From Stenotrophomonas sp. (lineage in GTDB: Bacteria; Pseudomonadota; Gammaproteobacteria; Xanthomonadales; Xanthomonadaceae), in assembly GCA_031987425.1 (NCBI GenBank), contig DALZZL010000001.1:9820-73819 (forward strand): 64,000 bases of DNA. Reading direction: 5' to 3'. Of the stretch, positions 2,370 through 64,000 are shown in pieces (position 1 is the first letter of the stretch; each line of letters starts with the position of its first letter). Both the position numbers and the translations under genes were made by a program. The notes under the pieces are model-generated. The model ran no database searches, was not told where the DNA came from, and saw only the letters and a program-made list of their open reading frames with translations.

Positions 2370-2379
2370 GGCGATCTCC

Positions 2380-3573
2380 TCAGGTAGCGCTGCCGGTGGC
2401 GTGGGGCACGGCCGTGCGTTGCACGGTGAGCAGCAGCGCCAGCGCGGGCAGCACCACGCCCAGCAGCGCCACGCCGGGCCAGCCGAAGGCGTGCCAGACC
2501 GTGGCCGACGCCCACGAACCCAGCGCACCGCCGATGAACATCGAGGTCATGAACAAGGTGTTGAGACGGCTCTTGAATTCCGGATGCAGGCCGTAGATCA
2601 GGTGCTGGTGCGAGACCAGCGCGATCTGCACGCCGAAATCCAGCACGATCACGCCGATCACCAAGCCGGTCAGTCCGGGCCAGATGCCGAGTACGATCCA
2701 CGACAGCAGCGTGGCCAGCGCTCCGAGACGGATTACCGGCGCCGGGCCGCGCCGGTCGGCGATGCGCCCGGCCACCGGCGCCATCGCCACGCCTACCGCG
2801 CCGACGATGCCGAACAGGCCCGCCGACGCCGCGCCCAGCGCAAGCGGCGGCTCGGCCAGGTGCAACGAGAGCACGGTCCAGAACGCCGAGAACGCGGCGA
2901 ACAGCAGCGCCTGCACGGTGGCGGCGCGGCGCAGGCGCGGCTCGTCGCGCCACAGCCGCCCCAGCGACGCCAGCAGCGCGCCGTACCCCATCGGCTTGGC
3001 CGGTGCATGGCGTGGCAGGCGCCATGCCATCAGCAGGCCGGCGGCCACCGCCACCGGCACCGCGATCCAGTACACCGCGCGCCAGCCGGCCACGCCCGAC
3101 AGCGCGCCGGCCACGGTGCGGCTGAGCAGGATGCCGGTGAGCAGGCCGCTCATCACCGTGCCGATCGCCGCGCCGCGCTTTTCAGGCGCGCACAGGATGG
3201 CGGTGAACGGCACGATCTGCTGGGCCACGGTGGCGGTGGCGCCCACCAGCACCGAGCCCACCGCCAGCATGCCCAGCCCGGGCGACCACGCGGTCAGCGC
3301 CAGCGCGAGGGCCAGCAGCAGGAACTGCACCACGATCAGCCGGCGGCGCTCGAACATGTCGCCCAGCGGCAGCAACAGCAGCAGGCCCGCTGCATAGCCG
3401 GCCTGGGTGAGCGCGGGAATCCAGGCGCTGACACGCGCATCGCCGAGGCTGCTGGCCATGACGCCGAGCATCGGCTGGTTGTAATAGATGTTGGCCACGG
3501 CGAGGCCGGCGGCCAGCGCCATCGCGAACAGCGGGGCGCGCGGCGAAGCGGGGGAGGAGGGGGCCGTGGTCAT
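2380..3573 (-). CDS. MFS transporter
   Basis: About 397 aa and multi-TM. Contains the MFS loop motif LGDMFERRRLI. The track start at 3591 is a TTG, so I prefer the ATG at 3571-3573 (MTTAPSS). The exact start is uncertain. Confidence 0.8.
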   Translation of the reverse strand: MTTAPSSPASPRAPLFAMALAAGLAVANIYYNQPMLGVMASSLGDARVSAWIPALTQAGYAAGLLLLLPLGDMFERRRLIVVQFLLLALALALTAWSPGLGMLAVGSVLVGATATVAQQIVPFTAILCAPEKRGAAIGTVMSGLLTGILLSRTVAGALSGVAGWRAVYWIAVPVAVAAGLLMAWRLPRHAPAKPMGYGALLASLGRLWRDEPRLRRAATVQALLFAAFSAFWTVLSLHLAEPPLALGAASAGLFGIVGAVGVAMAPVAGRIADRRGPAPVIRLGALATLLSWIVLGIWPGLTGLVIGVIVLDFGVQIALVSHQHLIYGLHPEFKSRLNTLFMTSMFIGGALGSWASATVWHAFGWPGVALLGVVLPALALLLTVQRTAVPHATGSAT

Positions 3574-3722
3574 GACGGATTCCAATGGCAAGCAGGGAGG
3601 GTGGCCGCCGACACGCGGCCGGCCGCTACCTTCCCGCGCGCCAACGGCGCGCGGAGAGGCAGAAGGTCACCACATGGCGCGTGTAGCGGGGACGCGGGCG
3701 CGTGGGCCGCGTCCGCGCGGGC

Positions 3723-4559
3723 TCAGCGCTGGATGAAGGCCAGCAGGTCGGCGTTGATCACGTCGGCATGGGTGGTGCACATGCCATGCGGATAGCCCTT
3801 GTAGACCTTCAGCTCGCCGTTCTTGACCAGCTTCCACGACAGCTCGCCGGCATCGGCGATCGGCACGATCTGGTCGTCGTCGCCGTGCATCACCAGCACC
3901 GGCACCTCGATCTTCTTCAGGTCTTCGGTCTGGTCGGTCTCCGAGAACGCCTTGATGCCCTCGTAGTGGGCCTTGGCGTTGCCGGCCATGCCCTGACGCC
4001 ACCAGTTCTGCACGGTACCCGGAATGGTTTTGACGCCTTCACGGTTGAAGCCGTAGAACGGGCCACCCGGCAGATCGAGGTAGAACTGCGAGCGGTTGGC
4101 GGCGAGCTGCGCACGCAGGCCGTCGAACACTTCGATCGGCAGGCCGCCCGGGTTGCTCGGGGTCTTGACCATGATCGGCGGCACCGCGCTGATCAGCACC
4201 GCCTTGGCGACGCGGCCGGCCGGCTGGCCGTGACGCGCGACATAGGCGGCCACTTCGCCGCCACCGGTCGAGTGGCCGATGTGCACCGCGTTGCGCAGGT
4301 CCAGGTGTTCCATCACCGCCGCGGCATCGGCGGCGTAGTGGGCCATGTCATGGCCGTCGGCGACGTGCGAGGAACGGCCATGGCCGCGGCGGTCGTGGGC
4401 GATGACGCGGAAGCCCTTGCCGAGGAAGAACAGCATCTGCGCATCCCAGTCATCGCTGGACAGCGGCCAACCATGATGGAAGACCAGCGGCTGGGCGTCC
4501 TTCGGGCCCCAATCCTGGAAAAAGATCTCGACGCCGTCGCGGGTGGTGATCGTGTTCAT
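3723..4559 (-). CDS. Alpha/beta hydrolase, non-haem haloperoxidase/arylesterase-like
   Basis: 278 aa starting at [24 protein letters not shown] oxyanion region, nucleophile elbow [16 protein letters not shown] and a C-terminal PHG. ATG at 4557-4559 is preceded by GAGGAA. Confidence 0.9.
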
Positions 4560-4662
4560 GAGCGAATTCCTCGTGTGGTGGAGTACAACGTGAACGCTAA
4601 TGGGGAACACCGGCGGCGAAAATCGTACGCTCGGTTCGCCGTCTCATACCAAGGTGTGGCTT

Positions 4663-5052
4663 CTACTGCGGGGGCAACACGTCCGCCAGGCAACGGGTGA
4701 TGGCATCGGCCTCTACCGGCTTGCCGAAGAACGCATGCGCGCCGGCCGCCAGCACGCGCGTGCGCACCGCTTCGGTGGGGAAAGCGGTGAGGAAGATCAC
4801 CGGAAAATGATGGCCGCCCGATTTCAGCGCGGCCTGCAGCTGCTCGCCGTCCATGCCGGGCATGCGCATGTCGCTGATCAGGCAGCTCGGGGCCTGCTGC
4901 GGCAGCGCCTCCAGGAATTCCAGGGCCGATGCATAGGTGCGTGTCGGATAACCCAACGAGCGCAGCAGGCTGGACAACGAAGTGCGGACGCCGCTGTCGT
5001 CGTCCACCACGGCGATATGGCTGGCGTGGGCGAGCGGGGCGGGATGGTTCAT
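4663..5052 (-). CDS. Single-domain response regulator (receiver only)
   Basis: 129 aa starting at MNHPAPL. Receiver signature VVDDDSGV ... LISDMRMPGMDG ... FFGKP, with no output domain. ATG at 5050-5052 is preceded by AAGGAG. Confidence 0.85.
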   Translation of the reverse strand: MNHPAPLAHASHIAVVDDDSGVRTSLSSLLRSLGYPTRTYASALEFLEALPQQAPSCLISDMRMPGMDGEQLQAALKSGGHHFPVIFLTAFPTEAVRTRVLAAGAHAFFGKPVEADAITRCLADVLPPQ

Positions 5053-5141
5053 GCTGACAACTCCTTCGCGCCACGCGGCGCACGAAGGTGCGTCAAGCCA
5101 GCCCGATGGCCCATTTAGGCACGCCGGGCCGAGGCTGAACA

Positions 5142-5795
5142 TCATACGGAGGTTTGGGGGCCGTGAATGCCGAGCGCCTCGGCGTGCCGCACCAGGTCGG
5201 CCAGCGAGCGCACGGCCATCTTGCGCATCACGTTGCCGCGATGGATCTTCACGGTGATCTCGCTCAGCCCGATCAATCCCGCGACCTGCTTGTTCATCAG
5301 CCCGGCCACCACGTGCGCCATCACCTCACGCTCGCGCGGGGTCAGGGTCTCGTAGCGGCCGCGCACGTGATCCAGGCTGGCCGCCTGCGCGCGGCGTTGG
5401 CGGTCGCGCTCGATCGCCGCGCTGGCCGCATCGAGCATGTCCTGGTCCCGGAACGGCTTGGCGAGGAAATCCACCGCGCCGGCCTTCATCGCCCGCACCG
5501 ACATCGGGATGTCGCCGTGGCCGGTCATGAAGATGATCGGCAGGGCGATGCCGTGGCCGGCCAGCTGGGCCTGGAAATCCAGGCCGCTGATCCCGGGCAG
5601 GCGCACGTCGAGCACCATGCAGCCGGTGAGATCGGGCAGCGGCTGGCGCAGCAGCTCGGCGGGCGAGGCGAACAGCAGGGTCTGCAGGCCGATCGAGCGG
5701 AACAGGCTGTCGAGCGAATCGCGTACCGCTGCCTCGTCGTCGACGATGACGACCAGGGGCGCGGCGTCTGGGCTGGGCGTGCGGTTAGCGGGCAT
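5142..5795 (-). CDS. FixJ/NarL-family response regulator (REC + LuxR-type HTH)
   Basis: 217 aa. Receiver motifs IVDDEAAVR, VLDVRLPGISG and LAKP. LuxR HTH motif LTPREREVMAHVVAGLMNKQVAGLIGLSEITVKIHRGNVMRKM. The start overlaps the kinase stop by 11 nt. Confidence 0.9.
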   Translation of the reverse strand: MPANRTPSPDAAPLVVIVDDEAAVRDSLDSLFRSIGLQTLLFASPAELLRQPLPDLTGCMVLDVRLPGISGLDFQAQLAGHGIALPIIFMTGHGDIPMSVRAMKAGAVDFLAKPFRDQDMLDAASAAIERDRQRRAQAASLDHVRGRYETLTPREREVMAHVVAGLMNKQVAGLIGLSEITVKIHRGNVMRKMAVRSLADLVRHAEALGIHGPQTSV

Positions 5796-7719
5796 GGGTC
5801 TCGGCGCTGTCGTGGGTGGCCAGGGTGAGGTGGAACACCGTGCCTTGGCCCGGCGCGCTGTCCACGGTCAGCGTACCGCCATGGGCCTCGGCGGTGCTGC
5901 GGCAGATCGCCAGCCCCATGCCCATGCCCTGTGGCTTGGTGGTGTAGAACGGATCGAACAGCCGGGGCAGGTCATCGGCGGCGATGCCCGGGCCGGTGTC
6001 GGCGACGTGGATGGACAGCGTGGCCGCGTCGCCATGGCTGGCCCGCAGCCGGACCTGGCGCAATCCCGGTTGGCCCGCCAGCGCCTGGCATGCGTTGACC
6101 AGCAGGTTGACCAGGATCTGCTCCAGCTGCACGCGGTCGCCATGCAGGGCCGGCAGGTCGTCGGCGACGCTGATCCGCACGTCCACCTCCTCGCGGGTGA
6201 ATTCGTGCCGCACCAGTTCCACCGCGTCGGCGAGCAGCGTGCCGGCCTGCAGCGACTGGCGTGGCGCGGGCGCCTTGCTGAGGAAGTCGCGCACGCGTCT
6301 TACGATCTCGCCGGCGCGCCGGCCCTCGGCGATGATGCGTGCGATCGCCGTCTCGACCTCGTGCAGGTCGGGCGTGTCGCGGCGCAGCCAGCGCATGCCG
6401 GCCTCGCCGTTGGTCACCACCGCCATCAGCGGCTGGTTGACCTCGTGGGCAATCGAGGCGGTCAGCTCGCCCAGCGTCGCCACCCGCATGGCATGCGCCA
6501 GCTCGGCCTGCGCGGCCAGCATGGCGTCCTGCGCCTGCTTGCGTTCGGTGACATCGACCACGAACACCAGCACGCTGCCTTCGCGATCGCCGGCGGTCGG
6601 GAAGGTGATGGTGAACAGCACCGGCACGCGCTGGCCATCGCCGCGCAGCAGGTCGGTCTCGCCCTCGAAGAACGGCTCGCCGGCGACAAATGCCAGCAGC
6701 GAGGGAATGAAGGTGTCGTCCGCCTTGTCGAGCAGTTCGGCCAGCGAGAGCGGCATCTGCCCATCGTCGCGTCCGGCGATTGCCGCGAAGGCCGGGTTCG
6801 CGGTCTCGATGCGCGCCAGCGCACGCGCCTGCGCCGCGAATCCGGGGTGGCCTGCCAGGTAGGCGGACAGCGCCGCCGGATCGGTCAGGCCGTGTGCCGT
6901 CAGTGCCGCCTGGATCGGCCGCCAGTCCTGCTGCACCACGCCGACGCGCGTGGCGTCGAACATGCGGCGGTAGCGGCGTTCACTCTGCACCAGCGCCGCA
7001 TGCGCGGCCTGGCGCTCGGTGACATCGGTATGCGTCTCCAGCACCTGCAGCACGCGCCCGGCCGCGTCGCGCTGCAGCGCCCAGCGGCTCTCCAGGGTCA
7101 ACTCGCGCCCGGCGCGGGTGGTCTGCACGAGCGTGCCCTCCCAGCGGCCTTCGGCCACCAGCACGGCCTCCACCTCGCCACGCGGCTGCGCATAGCGGGT
7201 CTGCAGCAGCTCGTCGGCGCTGCGTCCGACCGCCTCCTCGGCGCTCCAGCCATAGACTTCGGCCGCGCCGCGGTTCCAGAACAGGATCCGGCCGTCGCGG
7301 GAGCGGGTGAAGATCATGTCGTGCGACAGGTCCAGCAGCATCGCCTGCGAGCGCAGGGCCTGCACCGAGCGTTGGTTCTCCAACGCCAGCACCGCGCTGA
7401 TGGCGATCGCCGCCAGGCTCACCGCGGCGCGGAAGGTCTGCGCGCCCACGTGGCGCATGCCATGGGTGTCGAGATAGGCGAACAGGGTCAGTGCGATGCC
7501 GCCCACGGCCACGGCGATGATGTCGCCGCGGCGCGTGGTGCGCGCCACCAGCATGACCGCCACGACGTACAGCACCGCCACCGCGCCTTCCAGCGTGGTC
7601 ATCGTATCGACCAGGAAGATCACCAGCACCAGCAGCGCGGCGACCACGCGCAGCACCAGGTGCTGCAGGCGTTCGGCATGGGCGGCGCGGTCGCGCGCTA
7701 CGCGGGCACGGTCGGACAT
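5785..7719 (-). CDS. PAS-domain sensor histidine kinase (FixL-like) with an N-terminal membrane region
   Basis: About 644 aa from MSDRARVARD (ATG 7717-7719, GGAG upstream). N-terminal hydrophobic helices, repeated PAS-like segments, H box ELTASIAHEVNQPL, N box LVNLLVNACQA, G boxes DTGPGI and GMGMGLAI. The track start at 7911 is less likely. Confidence 0.88.
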   Translation of the reverse strand: MSDRARVARDRAAHAERLQHLVLRVVAALLVLVIFLVDTMTTLEGAVAVLYVVAVMLVARTTRRGDIIAVAVGGIALTLFAYLDTHGMRHVGAQTFRAAVSLAAIAISAVLALENQRSVQALRSQAMLLDLSHDMIFTRSRDGRILFWNRGAAEVYGWSAEEAVGRSADELLQTRYAQPRGEVEAVLVAEGRWEGTLVQTTRAGRELTLESRWALQRDAAGRVLQVLETHTDVTERQAAHAALVQSERRYRRMFDATRVGVVQQDWRPIQAALTAHGLTDPAALSAYLAGHPGFAAQARALARIETANPAFAAIAGRDDGQMPLSLAELLDKADDTFIPSLLAFVAGEPFFEGETDLLRGDGQRVPVLFTITFPTAGDREGSVLVFVVDVTERKQAQDAMLAAQAELAHAMRVATLGELTASIAHEVNQPLMAVVTNGEAGMRWLRRDTPDLHEVETAIARIIAEGRRAGEIVRRVRDFLSKAPAPRQSLQAGTLLADAVELVRHEFTREEVDVRISVADDLPALHGDRVQLEQILVNLLVNACQALAGQPGLRQVRLRASHGDAATLSIHVADTGPGIAADDLPRLFDPFYTTKPQGMGMGLAICRSTAEAHGGTLTVDSAPGQGTVFHLTLATHDSAETHAR

Positions 7720-7949
7720 ACGGCCTGACTCCGTCTTCACAGGGTGGGGGATGGCGCAAGGGGACGGCCCGTCGATCATAGGCGTGGACCGGCCCCCGCG
7801 CTGGTAACGGTGTGCGCTTCGGTCGCCCCAAACCAAGGTATGAGCCCGCGAAACGATCCGCCGATGTTGCCGGACGCTCCATCTGGTTACGTTGGCTGCC
7901 ATGCCGGGCACCGCACCGGCACCCCTTCCTCCAACGCAGGAGTTTCGCC

Positions 7950-53185: not shown

Positions 53186-53659
53186 GTGATTCAAAAGACC
53201 CGGTGTCCAGTAGCAGCATCCGTCTTCGTAAGCATCTTGTTAGTCGCGGGCTGTGGTCGAAATCCTGCTGAGCTGGAACCAGCCGACAGCCAGCAATCCA
53301 CCAAGAAAAAGCTGGAGATCATTGAGGTTGTGGCACGACCGGTCGGCGGGTCAGGCGACTTGTCGCTACGCCCAGCGTTTCCCGGCGATGTTGTTGAGAT
53401 CGCGATAAAGTCCAGAGGGCACACGGCCGCCGCGGATTTGTCCGTCAAGATGATCTCGCTCGCCGAAGGTGTCGCGGTGGCTACGCGGGATGTTCGCTTG
53501 AATGCCACCAGTGCGGCTACGCCCAGCGTTCGTTTCGAGCCATCTCCCGAGTGGAAACCCGGCCGCTATCTATTTGAGATCAGCTTGGACGGAAAGCTCG
53601 CGGGTACGCAAGAAATCGAGATATTCCCTGTTGAGATGGCGGAGCACGCAAAGCCTTGA
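53186..53659 (+). CDS. Hypothetical lipoprotein (beta-sandwich-like)
   Basis: 157 aa starting at a GTG at 53186, with GGAGG 7 nt upstream. Lipobox LLVAGC. No family recognised. Lies in the low-GC block. Confidence 0.6.
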   Translation: MIQKTRCPVAASVFVSILLVAGCGRNPAELEPADSQQSTKKKLEIIEVVARPVGGSGDLSLRPAFPGDVVEIAIKSRGHTAAADLSVKMISLAEGVAVATRDVRLNATSAATPSVRFEPSPEWKPGRYLFEISLDGKLAGTQEIEIFPVEMAEHAKP

Positions 53660-53673
53660 TGTCGGTCGCTCGA

Positions 53674-54699
53674 TCAAGGGCTGTCCAGTGTGCGCAGAAA
53701 AGCCGAAAGCTGATGTTGTTCTTCAACCGTTAACTTGATGGGCTGGCCACTGGCCAGCCCGCGGTAGTAGAGCTCGTGTTCGATAGCGGCTTCGAGCGTA
53801 GCTATGCTTCCATCATGCATATATGGCGCAGTGCGCCCTACATTGCGCAGGCTGGGAGTGCGGAACGCTCCAAGATCCTGTGGCGTTGAGGTGACCGCGA
53901 AGCGACCTAACTCTGCAATGTCCGGGTCCGCAAGGATGACGCGTCCGATGGGATCGCCTCCGGCGCGTGCTGCCTCAAGCCTTTGCTGCAGGTTCCTTAT
54001 ATTTCCGGCGATCTTCTCGAAGCCCACACTGGCGTGATGGAATTGGCCATCCGTGAATGCAGGACGTTTGCCTGATATGAGATGGCAGCTGCTGCATTGT
54101 GCCTTGCCGAGGAATAGCTGCAGCCCGCGCTGTGCCTTGCCGTCGAGTGAGCCGTAGTCCTTTCGTGCATATGCTTGATCAAACGCGCTTTCCCCCGTGT
54201 TAAGGGCCTTCAGATAGCTCGCAAGTGCGGCGGCGACCTCTGCTTCATCGATCCGTTTACCGAAGGCGGCGCGATACTCAGATTGCGCGCCGATTCGTGC
54301 TAGCACGGACTTCATGCTGTCGTGGCCCATCTCTCGCGGATTGATGAAGGGCTGCATGACAGCTGCGTCAAGGGTGCTTTCGCGCCCATCCCAAAATTGG
54401 GGGCCGTTTGCCGACACTCCTAGCAGACTCGGTGCATTGCGTGTCCCTGAGCGATTAAAGGCCCCCACGGACACCGGACGACCATCCGTGAAGGCAAGCC
54501 TGGAAATGTGACAGCTCGCACAACTAGTTTGGCCGTCAGCCCCCAATCGTGGGTCGTTGAAAAGCTGTGCGCCAACCTGGACACGCGCTTCCGTTCGCGC
54601 ATCCGGCCACTGGGCGCCACGTTCGCATGAAACTAGCGGCAGCAAGAACAACCCAATACCCGCGAATTTTGCAGCGATAGTTCCAATCCCTAGTTGCAT
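53674..54699 (-). CDS. Di-haem cytochrome c peroxidase (CCP/MauG family), lipoprotein
   Basis: 341 aa from MQLGIGTIAAKFAGIGLFLLPLVSC (lipobox). Two CxxCH haem motifs (CASCH, CSSCH). FWDGRESTLD and PSLRNV...PYMHDGS motifs. ATG at 54697-54699. The track start at 54801 is less likely. Confidence 0.86.
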   Translation of the reverse strand: MQLGIGTIAAKFAGIGLFLLPLVSCERGAQWPDARTEARVQVGAQLFNDPRLGADGQTSCASCHISRLAFTDGRPVSVGAFNRSGTRNAPSLLGVSANGPQFWDGRESTLDAAVMQPFINPREMGHDSMKSVLARIGAQSEYRAAFGKRIDEAEVAAALASYLKALNTGESAFDQAYARKDYGSLDGKAQRGLQLFLGKAQCSSCHLISGKRPAFTDGQFHHASVGFEKIAGNIRNLQQRLEAARAGGDPIGRVILADPDIAELGRFAVTSTPQDLGAFRTPSLRNVGRTAPYMHDGSIATLEAAIEHELYYRGLASGQPIKLTVEEQHQLSAFLRTLDSP

Positions 54700-54820
54700 T
54701 TTTCCGTCTGCCTTGACAGCACCCCTGGGCGAACTGTAAATCGTCGGGCTTGGATGCGCCACGCTGGCGCCAGCGTTCCACGGAGCGGCCATGGGCCGCA
54801 TGGCTCAGGGGTGAGCTGCT

Positions 54821-57800
54821 ATGGAAGGAATCGTGCGGTGGGGTGCCGACGTTCGTCGGCGCCTGTTCGGCAATCGTGGCAAGGTCACGCAGGTATGGGC
54901 CCGTCTCTGCTTGTGGGGTGTATGCGTTTTCGCGCTTGCGATGACTGGCGCCGCCTCGGCAACCCGATACGTCTATGACGCCAATGGACGCCTGGTCGCA
55001 GTTACTAACGACGCAGGTGAGTCGGCGCGCTATGTCTACGACGTGATGGGGAATATTCTCCAGGTCGATCGACTGGCAGCTGGGGAGTTGGCGCTGTTCT
55101 CCTTCTCCCCGGAGCGCGGAGTGTCGGGCACCCAGGTACGACTACAGGGGCAGGGCTTCAGTCCAATTCCGGCGTCCAATGCCGTCCGTTTTGGTGGCGC
55201 TGCTGCAACGGTTACGACCGCTTCGAGCACCGATCTGCTTGTAATTGTGCCGCCAGGGGCGACCACTGGGCCCATTTCGATAGCGGTGGGCTCGCAGTCG
55301 GTCTCCAGTACCAAGGCATTCATCGTCGATGAGAGCGACCTGGCGCCTAGCATTGACGGATTCTCGCCGGCCGTTGGGGTGGCGGGCGACAGCATTACGA
55401 TCACCGGTCGGTCGCTGTATCCACTCAACCACCAAACTGCCGTGCGTGTGGGGGGGCGTACAAGCGCCATCAGCAGTTCGGGCGACACGTCGCTGACGTT
55501 CACGGTGCCATCCGGCGCCAATACTGGAAAAGTCTCGGTTAGCACTCCCTACGGCATGGCCGTAAGCACGCAAGATCTGGTGGTTCTGCCCAGCGGCATC
55601 AGTCCAGGGGAGATCACCTCCAGCACACGTGTACTGCCGGACGCGCCTGCGGGTAATTTTTCCACTCAGGCCACCGGTGAACGGGCGGCGGTGATGGTCG
55701 ACGCGCAACTGGGCGAGTACCTGGATGTCCAGTTCTCGTCGATCAGTGTGGCCAGCTTGGCTTATTCGGTCTATGACCCATCCAATCGCTTGGTTGTCAG
55801 CGGCACGGCGACCCCGGCCAACCCAAGTCTGCTATTGCCGCCGGCCGACAGTGCTGGCACGTATCTGCTGTTGATAAAGCCAGTACAGGGCCCAGCAAGC
55901 TGGAACCTGTCGATTGAGAGGAGTAAGTCCATCACGGAAGATGGCGACTTCTCTTCGCTCGCCACAACCGTCAACGGCCAAAAGAAGCGCCTCATCTTCT
56001 ACGCATCGCGAGATCAACGTCTGGGTCTCGGCGTGGTCGAACCCTCGTTCTCTTCAGGAACCTACATGTCGATCGCGGTGCTAAGCCGCGACGGAACGTC
56101 GGTCACGAGTGGATCCTGCTATGCGTCATACGCCGGGTGCCACTTCAACATCCGCGCTCCTCAGGCGAGCACGTACAGTATCGTATTCACGCCGCAGAGC
56201 GGCCAGACCTTCCAGACGAAAGCGATACTGAGCAACGATCTGTATATCGCATTACAGCGGGAGGTGCCTCTTGACCTGACGCTGGCCAGGCGCGGACAGA
56301 ATGGTCGATTGACATTTTCCGCGCAAGCGGGCGATTCGATTGCTCTCTCGATATTTGCACAGACCACTTTCCCTGCCGGTCGTGCTGTCAACTACAGCAT
56401 CTATAAGCCTGACGGCACATTGTTGTCAGCGGGTGATGTTTTTACTTACCAGATATTCAACTTCCCCAGCCTTCCGCAGAGCGGCGACTACTTCGTCTTT
56501 GTAGATGCCGACTACGGCGCAACCATGGGCTCCCGGGTCGTGCTGATGGACAGCGCCAACAACAATCAGCCGATTGACGGGAACTTTGGCCAATTCGCGG
56601 CTCCCTTGGGGGGGCAATCGGCTTATTTCAATTTCGATGTCACCGAGGCCGATCAGCGTCTGGGGTTGGGCATCAGTGACTTGGTCCTAAGTTCTGGCAC
56701 TTATGTCAATGCCTATGTGTATCGGCCCGACGGAACTACGCTGGTTAGCACGACGTGCACGCAATCCGATGGTGGTTGTGATCTGAATGTCAGGGCGCCG
56801 GTCGTGGGTCGCTATAGCGTCATGGTGAAGCCAGCCAGTGCCAGCCAGACGATGCAGTTCAAGATCACGCTATCCAATGATCTACGCACGGATATCGCGC
56901 GCGAATCCCCGCTGCAGCTGCAGATCAGTCGACGGGGCCAGAATGCTCGGCTGTTCTTTGACGCCCAGGCAGGAGAGACGCTTGCTCTGCAAGTTGCTGG
57001 AACGTCGACTTTTCCAGCCGGAAAATCAGTCACATATCAAGTCGTGAAGCCGGATGGCACCGTCTTCAAAGAGGCCAGCACAAGTTCCTTCTCTACTGTG
57101 CTGTTGTCCTCGTTGCCTTCCGACGGGAAGTACATGGTTTTCGTTGATCCGTCCGACGGAGAGACGTTGGATGTCAGTCTCACACTGACTGATGGGCGCC
57201 AATCGGGCATGGTCATTGATGGCGCTTCGGGAGAGTACGTCGCGCAGATTCCCGGGCATCCTGCCTTCCTCACGTTCGATGCCAGTGAGGTGGATCAACG
57301 TCTGGGTCTTGCAGTTCATGACATACAGCTAAGTACGGGCACGTATGTCAACGTTTACCTTTACCGGCCTGATGGGACGTCCTTGACTTCTGGCACCTGC
57401 TATCAAGCGAGCGGATGTGAGTTCAACATCCGGGCCGCTGCAGTTGGTCGGTACAGCGTCGTAGTTTCACCGCAGGCCTCGTCTAGCGCGATAAGTCTTA
57501 AGGCGACGTTGTCCAACGACATGCGCGGTGTGCTAGCGCGGGAGACGCCAACTAGTCTCGTCATACCGCGTTATGGCCAGAACATGCGCGCGTCATTTGT
57601 TGCGGCGGCGGGAGAGAATCTGGCGCTTCAGATCACGGGCCAGGCTACGGAGTCCAGTGGCCGGTCCGTGACGTACTCGATCTACAAGCCCGATGGCACG
57701 CTGTTGACGAGTGCTGCCCCGTCCGCCTATGCGGACTTGCGAATGATCAATCTGCCGGCAAGCGGCGAGTATCTACTGTTCATTGATCCGACATATGGCG

Positions 57801-60376
57801 TGAAGGCACAGGCGCGCTTGCTGCTCACTGCGGGGAATGGAGACGCGCCTGTCGTTAACGGTGACCAAGGGGGCGTCACTACCACGGTTGCAGGTCAGGC
57901 CACATTTACAACATTTCCCGTTACCGAGGTTGGACAACAACTGGGAATTGGCATAAGTGATCTGACGGCGAGTTCAGGCTCCTACGTATCAATGTACGTC
58001 TATCGACCGAATGGCAGCACGGTTGGAAGCGTCAACTGCAATCTTTCGAACCAGGGATGCGACGCCAACTTCAGTGCGCCGGAAGTGGGGAACTACAGCA
58101 TCGTCGTGGCGCCTCAGAACGCCACGCAGACCATGAGCTACAAGGTCACTGTCAGTAATGATCTTCGTGTAGTGCTTCCGCGCGAGACCACTTTTGCGCT
58201 GGGTATCCCGCGCCGAGGGCAGAACGCGCGCCTGGCTTTCAGCGCCCAAGCTGGCGAGACCATGGCGTTGAAGCTGTCCGGCCAGGCGACGGTGCCGGCC
58301 GGAAAGAGCGTTTCCTATCAGATATACAAGCCAGACGGAACCTCGCTCACTAGCGGCGGCGGCACCAGCAACGACGTCATCAATATGACCACTCTGCCTG
58401 CGAGCGGCGAGTATCAGGTATTCGTGGACCCTGCCTATGGGGCGACGGTCAATGCGCAGCTTGTACTCACCAGCGGTACTGACAGTGGGGCTACTGTTGA
58501 TGGCGCGGTCGGCGATTTGTCTACGGTGTTGCCGGGGCAGTCTGCCTACGTGACTTTCCAGGCGAGCGCTGGTCAGCAGATCGGATTGGGGATCAGTGAC
58601 CTTGCGGTGTCTTCGGGCAGCTACGTGAGCGTTTACACCTACCGGCCTGGAGGAGTGACCGCGGGAAGTGGCACTTGCTCTGTCAGCAATGGTGGATGCG
58701 CCTTCAACATCAACGCTGTTGAAACGGGCATATATAGCGTGGTGGTTACGCCGCAAAGTGCCAGCCAAACGATGAGCTTCAAGGCGACGATTTCGCAAGA
58801 TCTGGTCGCTACGCTGGAACGCGATGCGCCCTTCGATCTAGTGCTTCCTCGCCGTGGGCAGAATCAGCGCCTGAACTTCAATGGCCAGGCCGGCGAGGCG
58901 TTGTCATTGCAGGTGGCTGGACAAACGTCCGTCCCCTCCGGGCGTTCCGTCTACTACCGTGTCTACAAGCCAGATGGTTCGGCACTTAACAGCTTCAGTA
59001 CCACCAATCTCGGGGCCATGGATATGAGGTTGCCTGTCACTGGCACCTATCAGGTACTGGTGGAGGGTGGGAGCGGTGAGAGCGTGGTCGCGCGCGTCAC
59101 ACTGTCGACAGGTGACACCCAGCAGGTCGGCGGAAGTCCAGGCAGTCTTCAGACCGCATTCGGCGGGCAACCGGTGTACGCCACTTTCCAGGCGGCCGCC
59201 GGCCAGCAACTGGGCATCGGAATCTACGATCTCGTCCTGTCCACCGGGACGAGTCTGGGGGCGGCCGTCTATCGCCCCAACGGCACTAGCGCGACAACCG
59301 CCACCTGCAGCACTTCCAATCAAGGTTGCAAGCTGAGCCTGACTGCTACCGACGCCGGGATCTACAGCGTGGTGGTTACGCCCCAGACGGCAAACCAGAC
59401 CATGTCGTTCAAGCTGGCCATCTCGCCAGATCTGACGGGCACGCTTCAGAAGGACACTCCGGTGGACATCAACATTGCGCGAAGAGGGCAAAACGCGCGA
59501 TTCACCTATGCCGGACAGGCGGGGGAGTGGCTGTCTCTCCAAGTGGCCGGCCAGATGACGGTACCAGCGGGTAAAGTGGTCTATTACAGAATTTATCGCC
59601 CGGAAGGCACGCTGCTTATCAGCGGCAACATAACCGGAATGGGTACGGTCAATCCCACAGCGTTGCCGGCTACGGGCGCGTATACCGTCCTGGTTGATTC
59701 TGGCTATGGCGAAACAGTCAGCTCGCGCGTCACCATCGCCAGTGGCGCTAGCGCTTTGCAGCTTGACGGTGCCTCGACTTCGGTGGCGACCTCTTTTGGT
59801 GGGCAGCCCGTATTTTTGGCTTTCAATGCAACCGCGGGTCAGCGTCTGGGGGTGGGCCTTACCGAAGTGCAGGCGTCCGCGGGTACCTATTTCGGCGCAG
59901 CGGTTTACCGTCCGGATGGATCCTCTACATCAGGCAACTGTTATCCACAGAATTATGGTTGTGAGTTCAACACAACGGCCAATGTGACGGGCACGTATCG
60001 GATCGTGGTAACGCCGGCGTTGTCTACCCAGTTGATAGGCTTCAGGGCCACAGTGTCGACTGACCTTGAGAAGACGTTGCAGCGCGGCGAGCGGACGGTA
60101 ATCGAGTTGTCCCGCGAGGGGCAGAATGGCTGGATTGCCTTCAATGGGGTCGCCGGAGAGGCGCCGTCGATATTGATCGCAGACCCTAGTACATGGCCTT
60201 CCGGCGGCAGCACAAACTACACGGTGTACCGCCCAGATGGCGGGACAGTGGCGTCCACTACCTCAGTTGTCGCCAAGACTTGGCAGCTTCCCAGCCTGCC
60301 ATCGACGGGCGAGTATCGAATCTTCGTGAGTCCGGCAGCTGCTTTGCCGTTGACCGTGGCGTTAACCGTGCAGTAA
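54821..60376 (+). CDS. Giant secreted repeat protein: signal peptide, one YD-repeat pair, 2 IPT/TIG domains, about 15 PPC-like beta-sandwich domains
   Basis: 1851-aa uninterrupted ORF. Signal-like segment LCLWGVCVFALAMTGAASA. YD motif RYVYDANGRLVAVTNDAGESARYVYDVMGNILQV. Two TIG-like segments (FSPERGVSGTQVRLQGQGF..., FSPAVGVAGDSITITGRSL...). Then seven ~213-aa two-domain units recognisable by DQRLGLGISD...YVYRPDGT...C-x5-7-C and RRGQNARL.F..QAGE...YKPDGT...LP.SGEY.VFVDP. Confidence 0.9.
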   Translation: MEGIVRWGADVRRRLFGNRGKVTQVWARLCLWGVCVFALAMTGAASATRYVYDANGRLVAVTNDAGESARYVYDVMGNILQVDRLAAGELALFSFSPERGVSGTQVRLQGQGFSPIPASNAVRFGGAAATVTTASSTDLLVIVPPGATTGPISIAVGSQSVSSTKAFIVDESDLAPSIDGFSPAVGVAGDSITITGRSLYPLNHQTAVRVGGRTSAISSSGDTSLTFTVPSGANTGKVSVSTPYGMAVSTQDLVVLPSGISPGEITSSTRVLPDAPAGNFSTQATGERAAVMVDAQLGEYLDVQFSSISVASLAYSVYDPSNRLVVSGTATPANPSLLLPPADSAGTYLLLIKPVQGPASWNLSIERSKSITEDGDFSSLATTVNGQKKRLIFYASRDQRLGLGVVEPSFSSGTYMSIAVLSRDGTSVTSGSCYASYAGCHFNIRAPQASTYSIVFTPQSGQTFQTKAILSNDLYIALQREVPLDLTLARRGQNGRLTFSAQAGDSIALSIFAQTTFPAGRAVNYSIYKPDGTLLSAGDVFTYQIFNFPSLPQSGDYFVFVDADYGATMGSRVVLMDSANNNQPIDGNFGQFAAPLGGQSAYFNFDVTEADQRLGLGISDLVLSSGTYVNAYVYRPDGTTLVSTTCTQSDGGCDLNVRAPVVGRYSVMVKPASASQTMQFKITLSNDLRTDIARESPLQLQISRRGQNARLFFDAQAGETLALQVAGTSTFPAGKSVTYQVVKPDGTVFKEASTSSFSTVLLSSLPSDGKYMVFVDPSDGETLDVSLTLTDGRQSGMVIDGASGEYVAQIPGHPAFLTFDASEVDQRLGLAVHDIQLSTGTYVNVYLYRPDGTSLTSGTCYQASGCEFNIRAAAVGRYSVVVSPQASSSAISLKATLSNDMRGVLARETPTSLVIPRYGQNMRASFVAAAGENLALQITGQATESSGRSVTYSIYKPDGTLLTSAAPSAYADLRMINLPASGEYLLFIDPTYGVKAQARLLLTAGNGDAPVVNGDQGGVTTTVAGQATFTTFPVTEVGQQLGIGISDLTASSGSYVSMYVYRPNGSTVGSVNCNLSNQGCDANFSAPEVGNYSIVVAPQNATQTMSYKVTVSNDLRVVLPRETTFALGIPRRGQNARLAFSAQAGETMALKLSGQATVPAGKSVSYQIYKPDGTSLTSGGGTSNDVINMTTLPASGEYQVFVDPAYGATVNAQLVLTSGTDSGATVDGAVGDLSTVLPGQSAYVTFQASAGQQIGLGISDLAVSSGSYVSVYTYRPGGVTAGSGTCSVSNGGCAFNINAVETGIYSVVVTPQSASQTMSFKATISQDLVATLERDAPFDLVLPRRGQNQRLNFNGQAGEALSLQVAGQTSVPSGRSVYYRVYKPDGSALNSFSTTNLGAMDMRLPVTGTYQVLVEGGSGESVVARVTLSTGDTQQVGGSPGSLQTAFGGQPVYATFQAAAGQQLGIGIYDLVLSTGTSLGAAVYRPNGTSATTATCSTSNQGCKLSLTATDAGIYSVVVTPQTANQTMSFKLAISPDLTGTLQKDTPVDINIARRGQNARFTYAGQAGEWLSLQVAGQMTVPAGKVVYYRIYRPEGTLLISGNITGMGTVNPTALPATGAYTVLVDSGYGETVSSRVTIASGASALQLDGASTSVATSFGGQPVFLAFNATAGQRLGVGLTEVQASAGTYFGAAVYRPDGSSTSGNCYPQNYGCEFNTTANVTGTYRIVVTPALSTQLIGFRATVSTDLEKTLQRGERTVIELSREGQNGWIAFNGVAGEAPSILIADPSTWPSGGSTNYTVYRPDGGTVASTTSVVAKTWQLPSLPSTGEYRIFVSPAAALPLTVALTVQ
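54962..55069 (+). other. Isolated YD/RHS repeat pair at the mature N-terminus of the giant protein
   Basis: aa 48-83, TRYVYDANGRLVAVTNDAGESARYVYDVMGNILQVD, matches the YD-repeat consensus (Y-x-Y-D-x-x-G-R/N-L) twice. Confidence 0.75.
55091..55591 (+). other. Two IPT/TIG-like Ig-fold domains
   Basis: aa 91-169 and 176-257. The pattern F-S-P-x-x-G-x-x-G-x-x-V/I-x-L/I-x-G-x-x-F/L ... V-x-F/V-G-G ... L-x-V/F-x-V-P ... G-x-V/I-S-V/I is typical of TIG domains. Assigned by eye. Confidence 0.65.
55628..60373 (+). repeat. Coding tandem array: one leading B-type domain plus seven (A+B) units of PPC-like domains, period ~213 aa (~640 nt)
   Basis: The RRGQN-type motif recurs at aa ~491, 705, 918 and 1131, and three more times after that. 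The LG(L/I)G...Y(V/L)YRP(D/N)G motif also occurs seven times. Units are diverged, with no long identical DNA stretches seen. Confidence 0.8.
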
Positions 60377-60433
60377 CGAATTCGTGTTTGCCGTCGGATG
60401 GCGGCATCGAGCGCAAAGGAATGGAGCAAGCGC

Positions 60434-63400
60434 ATGGCTAGCAAGCGGAAGGGCTGGATGTCCGTCACGGCGGGACTGCTGTTGGGGCTGGTGGCCGCGG
60501 CTGCGGCGTCCAATCACGTGTCGATCCCAACGTCAGGGCAATCATCTGAAGGAGGCCAGCTGACCGAGGCCAGGGCCGCCAGGGCAGTGCCCGGCACCGA
60601 GCGATATCTGCGTTTGCAGGGCGACCAGACGATTTACTTGTCTTCCAATGGCACGGAGCTGCGGCTGCAGACCTCCGCCAAGTCGAACCGCGGTCGAAGC
60701 TGGCTGCTGCCCACGGTGCGCCGAAATGCTAGCTTGACGTTGCTTCCTGACGGACGTGTGCTGGTCTGGGGGGGGCGAGATGCCGCGGGCAACATGCAGG
60801 CAGGGGGGCTGTGGTTCGATCCGGAACTGCGTGCCCTGGATCCAGCGGATCGTCTGCCCATGAGCGCAAGAAGCGACCATACGGCCACGGTGCTCACCGA
60901 TGGCCGTGTGTTGTTCGCTGGCGGCGTTGGCAACCCACACGCCTACGAATTGTGGAATCCTGATACTGGCCTTTGGAATGCCGTCGGTGAAGGCATGGCA
61001 CCGGCAAGCGGGCATCGGGCCGTATTGCAGGCAGATGGTCAGGTGCGGCTCTTGGGCGCCGGACGGGCGAGGGTCGGGGGGCGAGAGGACCTGCTCTTCA
61101 ATCCTGAGGGCGACGTGGTCGTTGCGGCGACGGATACACGAGGGAAGACCGTGCCGCTTGGCCTGGCCGGTTCCGTGCCGGAGCAAGGCGCGAATAACGT
61201 TGCGATCAACGCTCGGCTAGCGATTCGCTTTTCCGAACCGGTGCGTCTGAGTGATCTCAATGAAGCCACCTTTACCTTGTTTGGTCCCGGTGGCGCGGCG
61301 CCGGTTCGTGTCGTTGCAGTAGAGGATGGTCGGCTCGCTTTCGTCACCCCCCGTCGGGAGCTCTTTCCCGATGCTGCCTATACCCTGATGGTCGATGGCG
61401 TTACGAGCCAGAGCGGCGAGCGTCTCCCATTGATAACGCTGGATTTCCGAACGGCTGCGATTGCCGCTCCACAGAGCGCCTTGGGTGCTGACAAATCGAC
61501 AAGCAGCGGTGGGCAGTCCGTCGATCTCGCGGGAAAGGAAGGCTACTGCGGGACCAAATTGAGAACGCTTGTACTCTGCCAGGAGCAGGGTGAGATGCGT
61601 GATGGCGTGTGGACGCCCGGCAAGGACAATGCGGGCGAGAATTGGCGAGTTCCTGGTCGTCAGCCCGAACTGATGCCGCTCGGATTCATGCCTGAGCTTT
61701 TCAAGGCCTGGGGAAAGGCCGCATTGACCGGATCCATCCGGCGCGCTGATGGGCAGCCCGTGGCTGGTGTTGCCGTCAATGTGGGTGACAGCTTTGGCAA
61801 GACCAACGCGGAAGGGCAGTTCCTTATCTACGACGTTCCTTCGGGCAGACAGAAGCTATACGTAGACGGCACGGCCGCCAATGGGCCAGGCGTTGAATAC
61901 GGGCAATTTGTCATCGGTGTAGACGTGCAGCCAGGAGCGCTGACACAGGTGCCGTTCACTATGTGGCTGCCCCGCATCACTGCGCGCGACAAGATCAGGA
62001 TTCCGTCGCCGACAACGGAGGACATGGTTCTGAAGCATCCCGACCTGCCCGGCATGGAACTCCATATTCCGGCGGGCACGGTGATCCGGGATCACAAGGG
62101 AAAGATCGTGACCGAAGTCGCCATTGTGCCGACACCGGTCAATCGCTCACCGTACCCGTTGCCTACCAATTTCCCGATGTACTTTACCTTGCAGCCGGGT
62201 GGTGCCGTCCTGCAGGGCCTTACGCCAGAAGCAGGAAGGGGCGCTCGCGTCTATTACCCCAACTACGATCATCATCCCGCAGGTACTGCCGCGGACTTCT
62301 GGCTGTACGACGCAATGGAGGGCTGGCGCGTATACGGCCAGGGCAGGGTGAATGACGCGGAGACCCAGTTCGTGCCGGAGGATGGCGTGGCGCTGCGGGA
62401 AGTCGTGACATTTGGCGCGGCGGTGAGCCCCAGTGACCCGGCGCCGGAGGAGGGTAAGCCACCGGAGCCCCAGGAGTGTGGGGAGTGCAATGCAGGCACT
62501 GGTAACAGCGCCTCCGCGGGCGATCCCATTGATCTTAAAACCGGCCGATTCACCTATCAGGAAACCGACATCGCCATTAGTGATGTCGTCCCCATCACCG
62601 TTGGCCGAAACTACCGTCCCAGTGACCGCGTCAAGCGTGAGTTCGGATACGGCACAGCCGCGGATTTTGCGTACCGTCTCTCCATGAACGGCACAAGCTA
62701 CAGCGAGCTTCAGTTGGTACTGCCGAATGGATCGCCGCTAGTGTTCAAGCAGATATCCGGCACTGGAGCTTACGGTGTATGGCGATATGACGGAAAGCAA
62801 GCGATCTCGGGGGCAACCCTGTACTCGGACAATGTTGACGGCTACAAGTACTATTTAAGGCTGCGCGATGGCTCGCAGATGGTGTTCGAACCCCATAGCC
62901 CGAATCGGCTGCTATGGAGCCAGGATCGTTTCGGAAACCGGGTCGATTATGTCTACGATGCTGGGCGCGTAAGCCGCATCATCTCGCCCAACAGCCGATA
63001 CATCGACCTCGACTACGACACCCAGAACCGAATCATCTCGGCCAAGGACATGCTTGGGTCGACTTGGCGCTACGAGTACAACGCCCAGGGCCTTCTCGCA
63101 AAGGTCATCTATCCGGATGAAACCTTTCGTCGGTACGAGTATCAGAGCTGGGGAAGTAGTTCGACGCTTCGGCATCGCCTGTCAGCCATCTTCGATCAGC
63201 GAGGAAATCGCGTTCTGCTCAATGAGTACGAGCAGACTGGTACGGGCGCCGCGACCACGACCACAGGGCGCGTCATACGCCAGACGCTAGCGGATGGAGC
63301 GGTTTACCAAATTCAGTACGACCACATAGATGGAAGCACGACAGGCACCCTGGTAACGCACCCGGATGGCAGTCAGCGACGTGTGGTGTTTGGAGATGGG

Positions 63401-64000
63401 ATGTATCCGATTTCGGATACGCTGGCCTATGGGACGCCGCTGGCGCAGGAGTATCGGTTCGAGCGCGATGCGGAAGGAAGGATGACCGCACGGATCGATC
63501 CGATCGGGCGGCGGACGGAGTATGAGTACGATGGTTTTGGGCAACTCGTGGGGACCACCGTCCTGGCCGGAACCAGCCGAGCAGTCGAGACGAGAATCGC
63601 CTATACCGTGGAAGGCCAGGTGGCGTCGCTCACCGATCCGCTCAACCGCACCGTAACGCTGGAGTATGCCCAGGGCTGCCTGTCACGCGTCACCAATGCG
63701 CTGGGCAAGGCGAGTACGTTCACCTGCACATCTTCTGGCCTCCCGGAATCGGTAACCGACCCGCTATCCAATACCAGCGTGTCCTACTACGTCGGCGCGG
63801 ATCTGGTGACCCTAAGCGACCCTCTCGGGCGCGACATCAGCTTTCGCTACGACGCCCTCGGGCGTCAGGTCGCCGCGCAAGGGCCCGATGGCCAAATGGC
63901 GCGTGCCGAGTACAACAGCCAAAACCAACTCGTGAAAAACGTCGGCCCGGACGGAGGAACCAGCGAGCTGGCCTACGATGCCAACGGTAATATGACCGAC
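60434..64000 (+). CDS. Sec-signal RHS/YD-repeat protein with teneurin-like N-terminal domains (partial, 3' end outside the window)
   Basis: An open frame of 1189 codons with no stop runs from the ATG at 60434 to the window end. It is therefore missing from the ORF track. GGAG lies 7 nt upstream. Signal peptide MASKRKGWMSVTAGLLLGLVAAAAAS. Kelch-like repeats (LLPDGRVLVWGGRD, VLTDGRVLFAGGVG). Ig-like segment (NARLAIRFSEPV...TFTLFG). CarboxypepD_reg/TTR-like segment (LTGSIRRADGQPVAGVAVNV...NAEGQFLIYDVPSG). RHS core entry GDPIDLKTGRFTYQETDIAISDVVPITVGRNYRPSD at 62516, then many YD repeats (DRFGNRVDYVYDAGRV, WRYEYNAQGLL, RTEYEYDGFGQL, ISFRYDALGRQV). An alternative in-frame ATG lies at 60398. Confidence 0.9.
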   Translation, partial: MASKRKGWMSVTAGLLLGLVAAAAASNHVSIPTSGQSSEGGQLTEARAARAVPGTERYLRLQGDQTIYLSSNGTELRLQTSAKSNRGRSWLLPTVRRNASLTLLPDGRVLVWGGRDAAGNMQAGGLWFDPELRALDPADRLPMSARSDHTATVLTDGRVLFAGGVGNPHAYELWNPDTGLWNAVGEGMAPASGHRAVLQADGQVRLLGAGRARVGGREDLLFNPEGDVVVAATDTRGKTVPLGLAGSVPEQGANNVAINARLAIRFSEPVRLSDLNEATFTLFGPGGAAPVRVVAVEDGRLAFVTPRRELFPDAAYTLMVDGVTSQSGERLPLITLDFRTAAIAAPQSALGADKSTSSGGQSVDLAGKEGYCGTKLRTLVLCQEQGEMRDGVWTPGKDNAGENWRVPGRQPELMPLGFMPELFKAWGKAALTGSIRRADGQPVAGVAVNVGDSFGKTNAEGQFLIYDVPSGRQKLYVDGTAANGPGVEYGQFVIGVDVQPGALTQVPFTMWLPRITARDKIRIPSPTTEDMVLKHPDLPGMELHIPAGTVIRDHKGKIVTEVAIVPTPVNRSPYPLPTNFPMYFTLQPGGAVLQGLTPEAGRGARVYYPNYDHHPAGTAADFWLYDAMEGWRVYGQGRVNDAETQFVPEDGVALREVVTFGAAVSPSDPAPEEGKPPEPQECGECNAGTGNSASAGDPIDLKTGRFTYQETDIAISDVVPITVGRNYRPSDRVKREFGYGTAADFAYRLSMNGTSYSELQLVLPNGSPLVFKQISGTGAYGVWRYDGKQAISGATLYSDNVDGYKYYLRLRDGSQMVFEPHSPNRLLWSQDRFGNRVDYVYDAGRVSRIISPNSRYIDLDYDTQNRIISAKDMLGSTWRYEYNAQGLLAKVIYPDETFRRYEYQSWGSSSTLRHRLSAIFDQRGNRVLLNEYEQTGTGAATTTTGRVIRQTLADGAVYQIQYDHIDGSTTGTLVTHPDGSQRRVVFGDGMYPISDTLAYGTPLAQEYRFERDAEGRMTARIDPIGRRTEYEYDGFGQLVGTTVLAGTSRAVETRIAYTVEGQVASLTDPLNRTVTLEYAQGCLSRVTNALGKASTFTCTSSGLPESVTDPLSNTSVSYYVGADLVTLSDPLGRDISFRYDALGRQVAAQGPDGQMARAEYNSQNQLVKNVGPDGGTSELAYDANGNMTD

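Follow-up and report, generated by a model that had tools for sequence, protein, structure and literature searches.

We analysed a 64,000-nucleotide (nt) stretch of Stenotrophomonas sp. DNA (contig DALZZL010000001.1), hereafter the window. The element under study is an open reading frame (ORF) at 54821-60376 on the forward strand, which starts with ATG and encodes a repeat protein of 1851 amino acids (aa), called here the array protein. The gene lies between a divergent gene for a MauG/MbnH-like di-haem peroxidase and a gene for an RHS toxin, which starts 21 nt past the array stop codon. From its N-terminus, the array protein comprises a signal-peptide-like segment, one YD hairpin, two TIG domains, and 15 paralogous beta-sandwich domains of ~105 aa each. 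Positions are those of the window unless a locus is named; L001 is the window's own contig. The features of the array gene and its downstream neighbour are as follows.

54821..54961, + strand: signal-peptide-like N-terminus (aa 1-47), read from the sequence as a long Arg-rich n-region and a hydrophobic core, with ASA before T48.
54962..55075, + strand: single YD-repeat pair (aa 48-85), the predicted mature N-terminus (Pfam RHS_repeat, 1.6e-6; TIGR01643).
55088..55594, + strand: two IPT/TIG domains (aa ~90-170 and ~176-258; Pfam TIG, 1.7e-13 in two stretches; AlphaFold; Foldseek).
55607..55921, + strand: lone PPC-like domain P0 (aa 263-367), which can be aligned over its whole length to the A and B domains (~20% identity).
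55922..60373, + strand: seven A+B di-domain units (aa 368-1851; sequence anchors, unit hidden Markov model (HMM), AlphaFold, Foldseek).
60398..64000, + strand: 5' part of the RHS toxin gene, which runs off the window (Pfam Kelch, Big_5, CarboxypepD_reg, DUF6531, and RHS repeats).

The seven units begin at nt 55922, 56561, 57203, 57842, 58481, 59111, and 59747. Within them, two domain types alternate strictly. The A-type anchors ([DG]Q[RQ][LI]G..) lie at aa 398, 611, 825, 1038, 1251, 1461, and 1673, the B-type anchors (R.GQN) lie at aa 490, 704, 917, 1131, 1344, 1554, and 1765, and the unit length is 209-214 aa. Together with P0, the seven A+B pairs account for the 15 domains. The original prediction, made from the letters alone, had described an 1851-aa ORF with two TIG domains, seven strictly alternating A+B units with a ~213-aa period, about 15 domain copies, and a Cys pair restricted to the A domains. 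The ORF lies exactly where it had been placed, the TIG domains were recovered by Pfam, and the alternation, the copy number, and the restriction of the Cys pair were all borne out. The Cys pair flanks a tight turn with the spacing C-x5-6-C, and 83-85% of the 574 units examined, drawn from 120 homologues, retain it. The single YD hairpin, the 15th domain, and the upstream peroxidase gene had gone unmentioned.

The regularity of the repeat is far beyond chance, although its copies are strongly diverged. Amino acid identity is 36-52% between the repeats and, by domain, 36-53% within the A type, 29-54% within the B type, and 14-31% between types. The DNA of the units is 46-57% identical, and identity at third codon positions (0.27-0.42) is saturated. 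Tandem Repeats Finder detected no long-period repeat in the array DNA, which, together with this saturation, rules out recent slippage. The unit HMM recovered all seven units of the array protein and three to 12 units in each homologue. In the orthologues with seven units (53-65% identical), each unit best matched the unit at the same position; thus, the array is older than the splits between those species. The earlier view of an old, selected array rather than a product of slippage therefore stands. The A/B alternation would come from repeated duplication of a two-domain unit, with the side effect that adjacent domains are only ~23% identical.

For the fold of the array, a model of the domains A4+B4+A5 was computed with AlphaFold from an alignment of 33 A+B+A windows taken from the array protein and its homologues. 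The model is all-beta, with a defined A-B packing, a mean predicted local distance difference test score (pLDDT) of 94.1, and a predicted template modelling score (pTM) of 0.88; its confidence drops only where a B domain is linked to the A domain that follows. The best Foldseek match in the PDB was the tandem of collagen-binding domains s3a-s3b of ColG (5iku, E 3.4e-9), followed by other two-sandwich modules. We take the ColG collagen-binding domains to be members of the PPC family. In Pfam, the whole array protein matched PPC (PF04151) in four stretches with 63.2 bits against a cut-off of 25.9 (E 4.1e-17), whereas only four of the 15 single domains reached E<=0.01, the best of them at 1.1e-4. 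Sequence searches of the PDB with one unit and with the domain profile returned nothing significant, so that the fold comparison alone was informative. The array domains are distant PPC-type beta-sandwiches in two alternating subtypes. The original assignment to PPC-type sandwiches is thus upheld by the whole-protein match, the model, and the similarity to 5iku, whereas the match of single domains to the family is weak.

The N-terminal part was modelled separately with a pLDDT of 88.4, and the model consists of the YD pair followed by two Ig-like TIG domains. The YD pair forms four beta-strands (pLDDT 84-89), and the Pfam RHS_repeat match within it spans aa 52-82. Its position is conserved, as the YD motif lies one to three residues past an AxA-type site in nearly all of the 120 homologues. 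The best Foldseek matches of the N-terminal model were the IPT domains of plexin and MET (E 6e-10), and surface glycan-binding proteins bearing TIG domains also matched. Both the Pfam match and the Ig-like fold place the two domains in the IPT/TIG family (PF01833). The array protein has one YD pair only and lacks the PxxxxDPxGL core motif; hence, it is not counted among the RHS/YD-repeat shells. Median identity over 99 homologues is highest in the YD hairpin (67%), intermediate in the first and second TIG domains (51% and 41%), and lowest in the array units (33-39%). A lone YD repeat also recurs in proteins from other phyla (P0116, P0103, and P0080), either inside the protein or at its C-terminal end, accompanied by 14-20 TIG domains or lying between CarboxypepD_reg and PPC arrays. 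One YD hairpin beside TIG is therefore a recurring module outside the array family.

A first homology search returned 298 relatives, mostly annotated as 'IPT/TIG domain-containing protein', from Lysobacter, Luteimonas, Xanthomonas, Pseudoxanthomonas, Luteibacter, Dyella, Burkholderia pseudomallei, Roseateles, Collimonas, and Corallococcus. The homologues carry three to 12 whole A+B units and reach ~2,700 aa. The unit profile was additionally searched against 1.84 billion cluster representatives, of which 8,852 matched at E<=1e-3, 4,948 at E<=1e-10, and 2,141 at E<=1e-30. Arrays of many PPC-type domains had been thought unusual; with 2,141 representatives at the strictest threshold, this was not borne out, and the architecture is widespread rather than exceptional. 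Some relatives, such as a 788-aa protein of B. cenocepacia, have a single repeat type in near-identical copies, and the A/B form is one subfamily of such arrays.

The full RHS gene at L001 15578-20953 encodes 1791 aa. The protein has a signal-like N-terminus of its own, Kelch motifs at aa ~105-222, and then an Ig domain (Big_5) and a TTR-like domain (CarboxypepD_reg). A DUF6531 plug and a TEN_YD-shell were detected, and the core motif PVSFVDPHGL lies at aa 1634. With its many YD repeats and this PxxxxDPxGL motif, the protein has both marks of an RHS shell. A PDB sequence search linked the core to TcdB2-TccC3, and the domain search gave no NHL propeller match; in the absence of an NHL domain, the protein was not classed as a member of the teneurin-like group. 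The C-terminal domain (L001 20480-20950) weakly matches Tlde1, an L,D-transpeptidase-type effector, with an SxGC-type motif, and an Imm57 immunity gene follows (L001 21001-21498). As judged from sequence, the toxin domain and its Imm57 partner suggest a Tlde1-type activity on peptidoglycan in the periplasm. A toxin that looks peptidoglycan-directed and would be neutralised by Imm57 points to a system serving interbacterial competition.

The link between the array gene and RHS genes, which the original prediction had raised, is real and strong. Wherever a related locus from Proteobacteria or myxobacteria is long enough to show it, an RHS gene adjoins the array gene. These loci come from Luteimonas, Burkholderia sp. 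MSHR3999, a Stenotrophomonas metagenome-assembled genome (MAG), Pseudoxanthomonas, Lysobacter, Dyella, Luteibacter, Rhodanobacter, Corallococcus terminator, Pseudoduganella, and several metagenome contigs; the locus search used a six-sequence alignment and reached mostly Xanthomonadales. The Stenotrophomonas MAG is the closest relative (59% identity). The adjacency spans Gammaproteobacteria, Betaproteobacteria, and Myxococcota, and the flanking genes are different each time. An architecture both common and unlinked to RHS genes had been named as grounds for dropping the prediction; the architecture is common, but the RHS link holds.

The same parts also occur in single chains. The 3248-aa protein P0231 consists of a signal, the YD hairpin, TIG, seven A+B units, DUF6531, a YD shell, and a nuclease of the EC869-like type; the next gene encodes CdiI. 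The 3727-aa protein P0211 consists of a signal, YD, TIG, the array, CarboxypepD_reg, the DUF6531 plug, and RHS. Parts that are fused elsewhere and adjacent here are what one typically sees when a gene has split and its two products still act jointly. The RHS protein of the window aligns to both fusions from aa ~404 on, and its first ~400 residues (signal, Kelch, and Big_5) are unmatched in them. This Kelch/Big_5 head is therefore a candidate replacement for the lost peptide bond.

Stop-codon read-through was rejected as the connection between the two genes. In the window, only 21 nt separate the array and RHS genes (60374-60400), which share a reading frame; in L002, L003, L037, and L041, the two frames stand in a different relation. 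Given this difference and the signal-like N-terminus of the RHS protein itself, the shared frame is attributed to chance.

Two loci depart from the simple gene pair. In Cupriavidus (L043), the RHS partner itself is split into a Kelch and Big_5 protein (492 aa, 5130-6608) and a plug-shell protein (1337 aa, 1250-5263), whose ORFs overlap. This is either a natural split at the proposed docking module or a frameshift. In the Stenotrophomonas maltophilia MAG UBA4555 (DGLB01000054.1; L004/L036), the peroxidase gene is followed, in this order, by a 313-aa ORF that matches the N-terminal part of the array protein and by an RHS gene that leaves no space behind it for an immunity gene. Next come two complete array genes in tandem (1839 and 1852 aa), and then RHS in three ORFs (408, 631, and 686 aa). 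The arrangement looks like duplication and decay within the locus.

Upstream of the array gene, two further features were delimited.

53674..54801, - strand: MauG/MbnH-like di-haem peroxidase (Pfam CCP_MauG, 1.8e-43), divergent from the array gene; the likely start is an internal Met at ~54696.
53186..53659, + strand: small protein of 157 aa, predicted to be a lipoprotein from its LVAGC lipobox; the gene converges with that of the peroxidase; no Pfam family.

The peroxidase has two invariant CxxCH motifs, CASCH and CSSCH. Its best PDB match was the MbnH-type 'Di-heme enzyme' 6e1c (3e-38), and MauG aligned over its full length (1e-24). The Tyr of its ELYYRG motif aligns at the Met haem ligand of canonical peroxidases (V-M-G in G. 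sulfurreducens CcpA), and 6e1c likewise has Tyr there. A Tyr in place of Met on the six-coordinate haem, together with the two CxxCH motifs, marks the protein as MauG/MbnH-type as far as the alignment tells. The best NCBIfam models were MbnH TIGR04039 (8.7e-51, 172.9 bits against a cut-off of 362.85) and MauG TIGR03791 (3.4e-41, 141.4 bits against 443.85). Both scores lie below the equivalog cut-offs, which indicates a related but distinct clade. Burkholderia BthA was rejected as its identity, since BthA-type PDB entries matched at 1e-9 only and the BthA gene lies elsewhere. That gene stands beside a purple acid phosphatase gene, unlike the array-RHS locus (PMC6405878).

The peroxidase gene is inherited with the array-RHS pair. 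All 20 distinct loci from Proteobacteria and myxobacteria have a peroxidase homologue (40-66% identity) next to the pair, mostly divergent and upstream; in L013 it separates the array gene from the RHS gene, on the same strand as both, in L015 it follows the array gene, and in Corallococcus it is upstream on the same strand. In a reverse test with three taxa outside the earlier sample, the peroxidase homologues of Stenotrophomonas rhizophila, Cupriavidus basilensis, and B. cenocepacia all lay beside a YD-TIG-PPC gene followed by an RHS gene (3/3). By analogy with MauG and MbnH, the enzyme probably modifies one component oxidatively in the periplasm. The Cys pair was rejected as its target, because the Cys-free arrays P0107 and P0082 still have both the peroxidase and the RHS gene. 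A literature search for RHS combined with MauG, cytochrome c peroxidase, or TIG found nothing relevant, and a MauG-like peroxidase seems not to have been linked to RHS or polymorphic toxins before.

In L039, a gene for a Dyp/EfeB-type peroxidase (6446-7726) lies divergently upstream of the fused P0211 gene, where the MauG-like gene sits elsewhere. A non-homologous replacement of the MauG-like enzyme was considered for this gene; it is suggestive but was not relied on, as it is a single case with an equivalog score for the iron-uptake protein EfeB.

Only the closest Xanthomonadaceae loci (L002/L006, L004, L005, and L007) have a homologue of the 157-aa lipoprotein at this position (31-46% identity), and whether the lipoprotein is part of the array-RHS system is uncertain. 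Across the window, the guanine-cytosine (GC) content is ~0.68-0.70 over positions 1-50000 and 0.57-0.63 from ~50 kb on, a stretch that includes the genes for a sulfatase, MarC, the peroxidase, the array protein, and the RHS protein. On the full contig, a gene of phage type (DUF3653) comes after the immunity gene. The drop in GC and the DUF3653 gene suggest a horizontally acquired island.

At two related loci, a cluster resembling a type II secretion system (T2SS) follows the peroxidase gene on the same strand. These loci belong to Cupriavidus basilensis OR16 (L043 10464-19095) and a B. cenocepacia contig (L044 10258-19143). The cluster begins with a gene for an SLT transglycosylase; genes for a pseudopilin, T2SSF, and T2SSE come next, then four small unknown genes, and last the gene for a secretin that has STN, TPR, and cohesin-like parts. 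This T2SS-like cluster may be the export route. From the signal-peptide-like N-terminus, the model, and the T2SS-like cluster at these two loci, we infer that the array protein is rod-like and extracellular.

Taken together, the adjacency, the fusions with their shared domain order, the variable unit number with the conservation profile, the confident all-beta models, the accompanying peroxidase, and the possible export route favour the following reading: the RHS protein encoded 21 nt downstream is a teneurin-like antibacterial toxin exported by Sec, and the array protein is its N-terminal stalk, or presentation module, made from a gene of its own. We give this reading a probability of about 0.65. 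Under it, the array and RHS proteins would both leave by Sec, and the split halves would then associate, for which the Kelch and Big_5 segment, present in the split RHS partners only, is the candidate docking piece. The chain of beta-sandwiches would act as a length-variable spacer or adhesive rod of three to 12 A+B units. Conservation falls from the YD tip to the units, which suggests that the tip carries a specific interaction and that the array is mainly structure. The conserved YD-TIG end would bind an invariant partner, such as the envelope of the producer, a secretin, or an RHS shell. The fused forms have kept the YD hairpin, so that binding to an invariant partner is a likelier role for it than re-joining the halves. 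The dedicated peroxidase, co-inherited with the pair, would oxidise one component in the periplasm, and the Tlde1-type toxin, neutralised by Imm57, would serve competition between bacteria.

Several points weigh against the stalk reading. The array protein has no recognisable outer-membrane anchor or sorting signal, so that its display on the surface is conjectural. The T2SS-like cluster was not found in the window or within 10 kb at the other loci, and the RHS cocoon, once folded, may exceed the size that a secretin can pass. Only two fused array-RHS forms were found, and both retain the YD hairpin, which therefore cannot simply serve to re-join split halves. Additionally, the acidobacterial YD-TIG proteins beside RHS genes lack the peroxidase.

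A broader proposal, which we offer only tentatively, is that the peroxidase, the YD-TIG-PPC stalk, and the Kelch-headed RHS protein form an unrecognised delivery system for RHS or teneurin-like toxins exported by Sec, which the T2SS-like secretin cluster joins in some lineages. The peroxidase would couple or arm the stalk and the cocoon by an oxidative cross-link or another modification, and the YD-TIG tip would anchor the complex, for example, to the cohesin-bearing secretin.

The same observations can be read in other ways. The array protein could be a periplasmic scaffold or chaperone that holds the RHS cocoon until export, serves as the substrate of the MauG-like enzyme, and never leaves the cell. 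The Sec-type N-termini of both proteins and the lack of an outer-membrane anchor agree with this, as does the action of MauG-type enzymes on protein substrates in the periplasm (known for the family; PMC6405878). However, a chaperone needs neither a variable number of three to 12 units nor up to ~2,700 aa, and the fused chains carry the array as the N-terminal portion of the toxin, a place that adhesion modules take in teneurin-like proteins; we consider this reading unlikely. Somewhat less probable again is an independent adhesin or matrix protein that attaches to a polymer or surface by means of its many PPC/collagen-binding-like domains and came to lie beside the RHS gene through a shared mobile island. 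A collagen-binding tandem as the best structural match, the resemblance of the N-terminal model to TIG-bearing surface glycan-binding proteins, and a GC content that falls from 0.68 to ~0.60 across the locus, suggesting horizontal acquisition, would all suit an adhesin. The persistence of the RHS adjacency across Gammaproteobacteria, Betaproteobacteria, and Myxococcota despite differing flanks argues against it, and so does the existence of single-chain fusions with the RHS shell.

The array protein might also be imagined as a translocator like TcA, the A component of ABC toxins, that binds the RHS propeller and injects through a pore. It is a large protein encoded beside a propeller-bearing RHS cocoon, like TcA beside TcB-TcC, and the RHS core is tied to TcdB2-TccC3 by the sequence search of the PDB. 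Every modelled part of the array is nevertheless a beta structure of sandwich type, with no helical channel or shell and no Tc-family Pfam match, and the toxin looks antibacterial. The predicted fold already largely refutes this reading, and we regard it as very improbable.

What is new at this locus is an RHS polymorphic toxin system whose probable stalk is built of PPC-type domains and encoded by a separate gene, and which has a MauG-type peroxidase of its own. The delivery of teneurin-like toxins 'remains to be elucidated' (PMC13018210), and the locus offers genetically testable candidates for it, namely a length-variable stalk that is fused or split, a Kelch/Big_5 head found in the split form only, a MauG-type peroxidase, and, in two Burkholderiales, the T2SS-like cluster. 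A literature search found no precedent for a MauG-type peroxidase in polymorphic toxin systems, and MauG-family enzymology would gain a new likely protein substrate, judging by analogy with its known members. As the system occurs in Burkholderia pseudomallei, B. cenocepacia, Stenotrophomonas, Xanthomonas, and Lysobacter, it may matter for clinical and plant-associated competition.

Among known systems, the closest comparison for the partner gene is with the bacterial teneurin-like proteins, described as BIG-TTR-TIP-FN plug-NHL-YD shell-toxin (Raoelijaona et al., Nat Commun 2026; PMC13018210). Like these Sec-dependent RHS toxins, the partner has a BIG-type Ig domain, a TTR domain, an FN-plug (DUF6531), a YD shell, a polymorphic toxin, and a downstream immunity gene, and variable adhesion-type modules precede the toxin there as the array does here. 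In contrast, the N-terminal module is a separate gene here, the propeller is of the Kelch type and lies at the N-terminus, with no NHL found between the plug and the shell, a PPC-like A/B array and a single YD hairpin characterise the stalk, and a MauG-like peroxidase is always present in the proteobacterial and myxobacterial loci. The description of the teneurin-like proteins makes no mention of a separate stalk gene, a Kelch head, or a peroxidase (PMC13018210).

The peroxidase resembles MauG, which acts on pre-methylamine dehydrogenase, and MbnH, which acts on MbnP, in its two CxxCH motifs, the Tyr at the ligand position, and its co-inheritance with specific partner genes. Both enzymes oxidise a partner protein. 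It differs from them in scoring below the curated cut-offs and in having no mau or mbn genes nearby. The array domains share their beta-sandwich fold with the PPC/collagen-binding domains (PF04151; ColG s3a-s3b), which likewise occur in tandem, but the array has 15 copies rather than one or two, no protease, a marginal similarity per domain, and a Cys pair in the A subtype.

The Tc (ABC) toxins, TcA with TcB-TcC, are alike in having a large separate protein beside a propeller-bearing RHS cocoon, and their propeller is the docking site of TcA. The array protein, however, is all-beta without a helical pore or homology to TcA, and the toxin-immunity pair points to bacterial targets. With CdiA/CdiB, the system shares a long repetitive filament with a polymorphic C-terminal toxin and cognate immunity, and one fused relative even carries an EC869-like nuclease of the contact-dependent inhibition (CDI) type with CdiI. 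Unlike CdiA, the array protein has no TPS domain and no FHA repeats by Pfam or NCBIfam, no CdiB-like transporter gene was found among the neighbours, and the toxin is enclosed in an RHS shell. Finally, SasG and Aap, with their E-G5 repeats, are rod-like surface proteins built from alternating domain types. The array resembles them in its strict A-B alternation from duplication of a two-domain unit and in its variable copy number, whereas the folds are unrelated, the host is Gram-negative, no cell-wall anchor is present, and the rod of the array is tied to a toxin.

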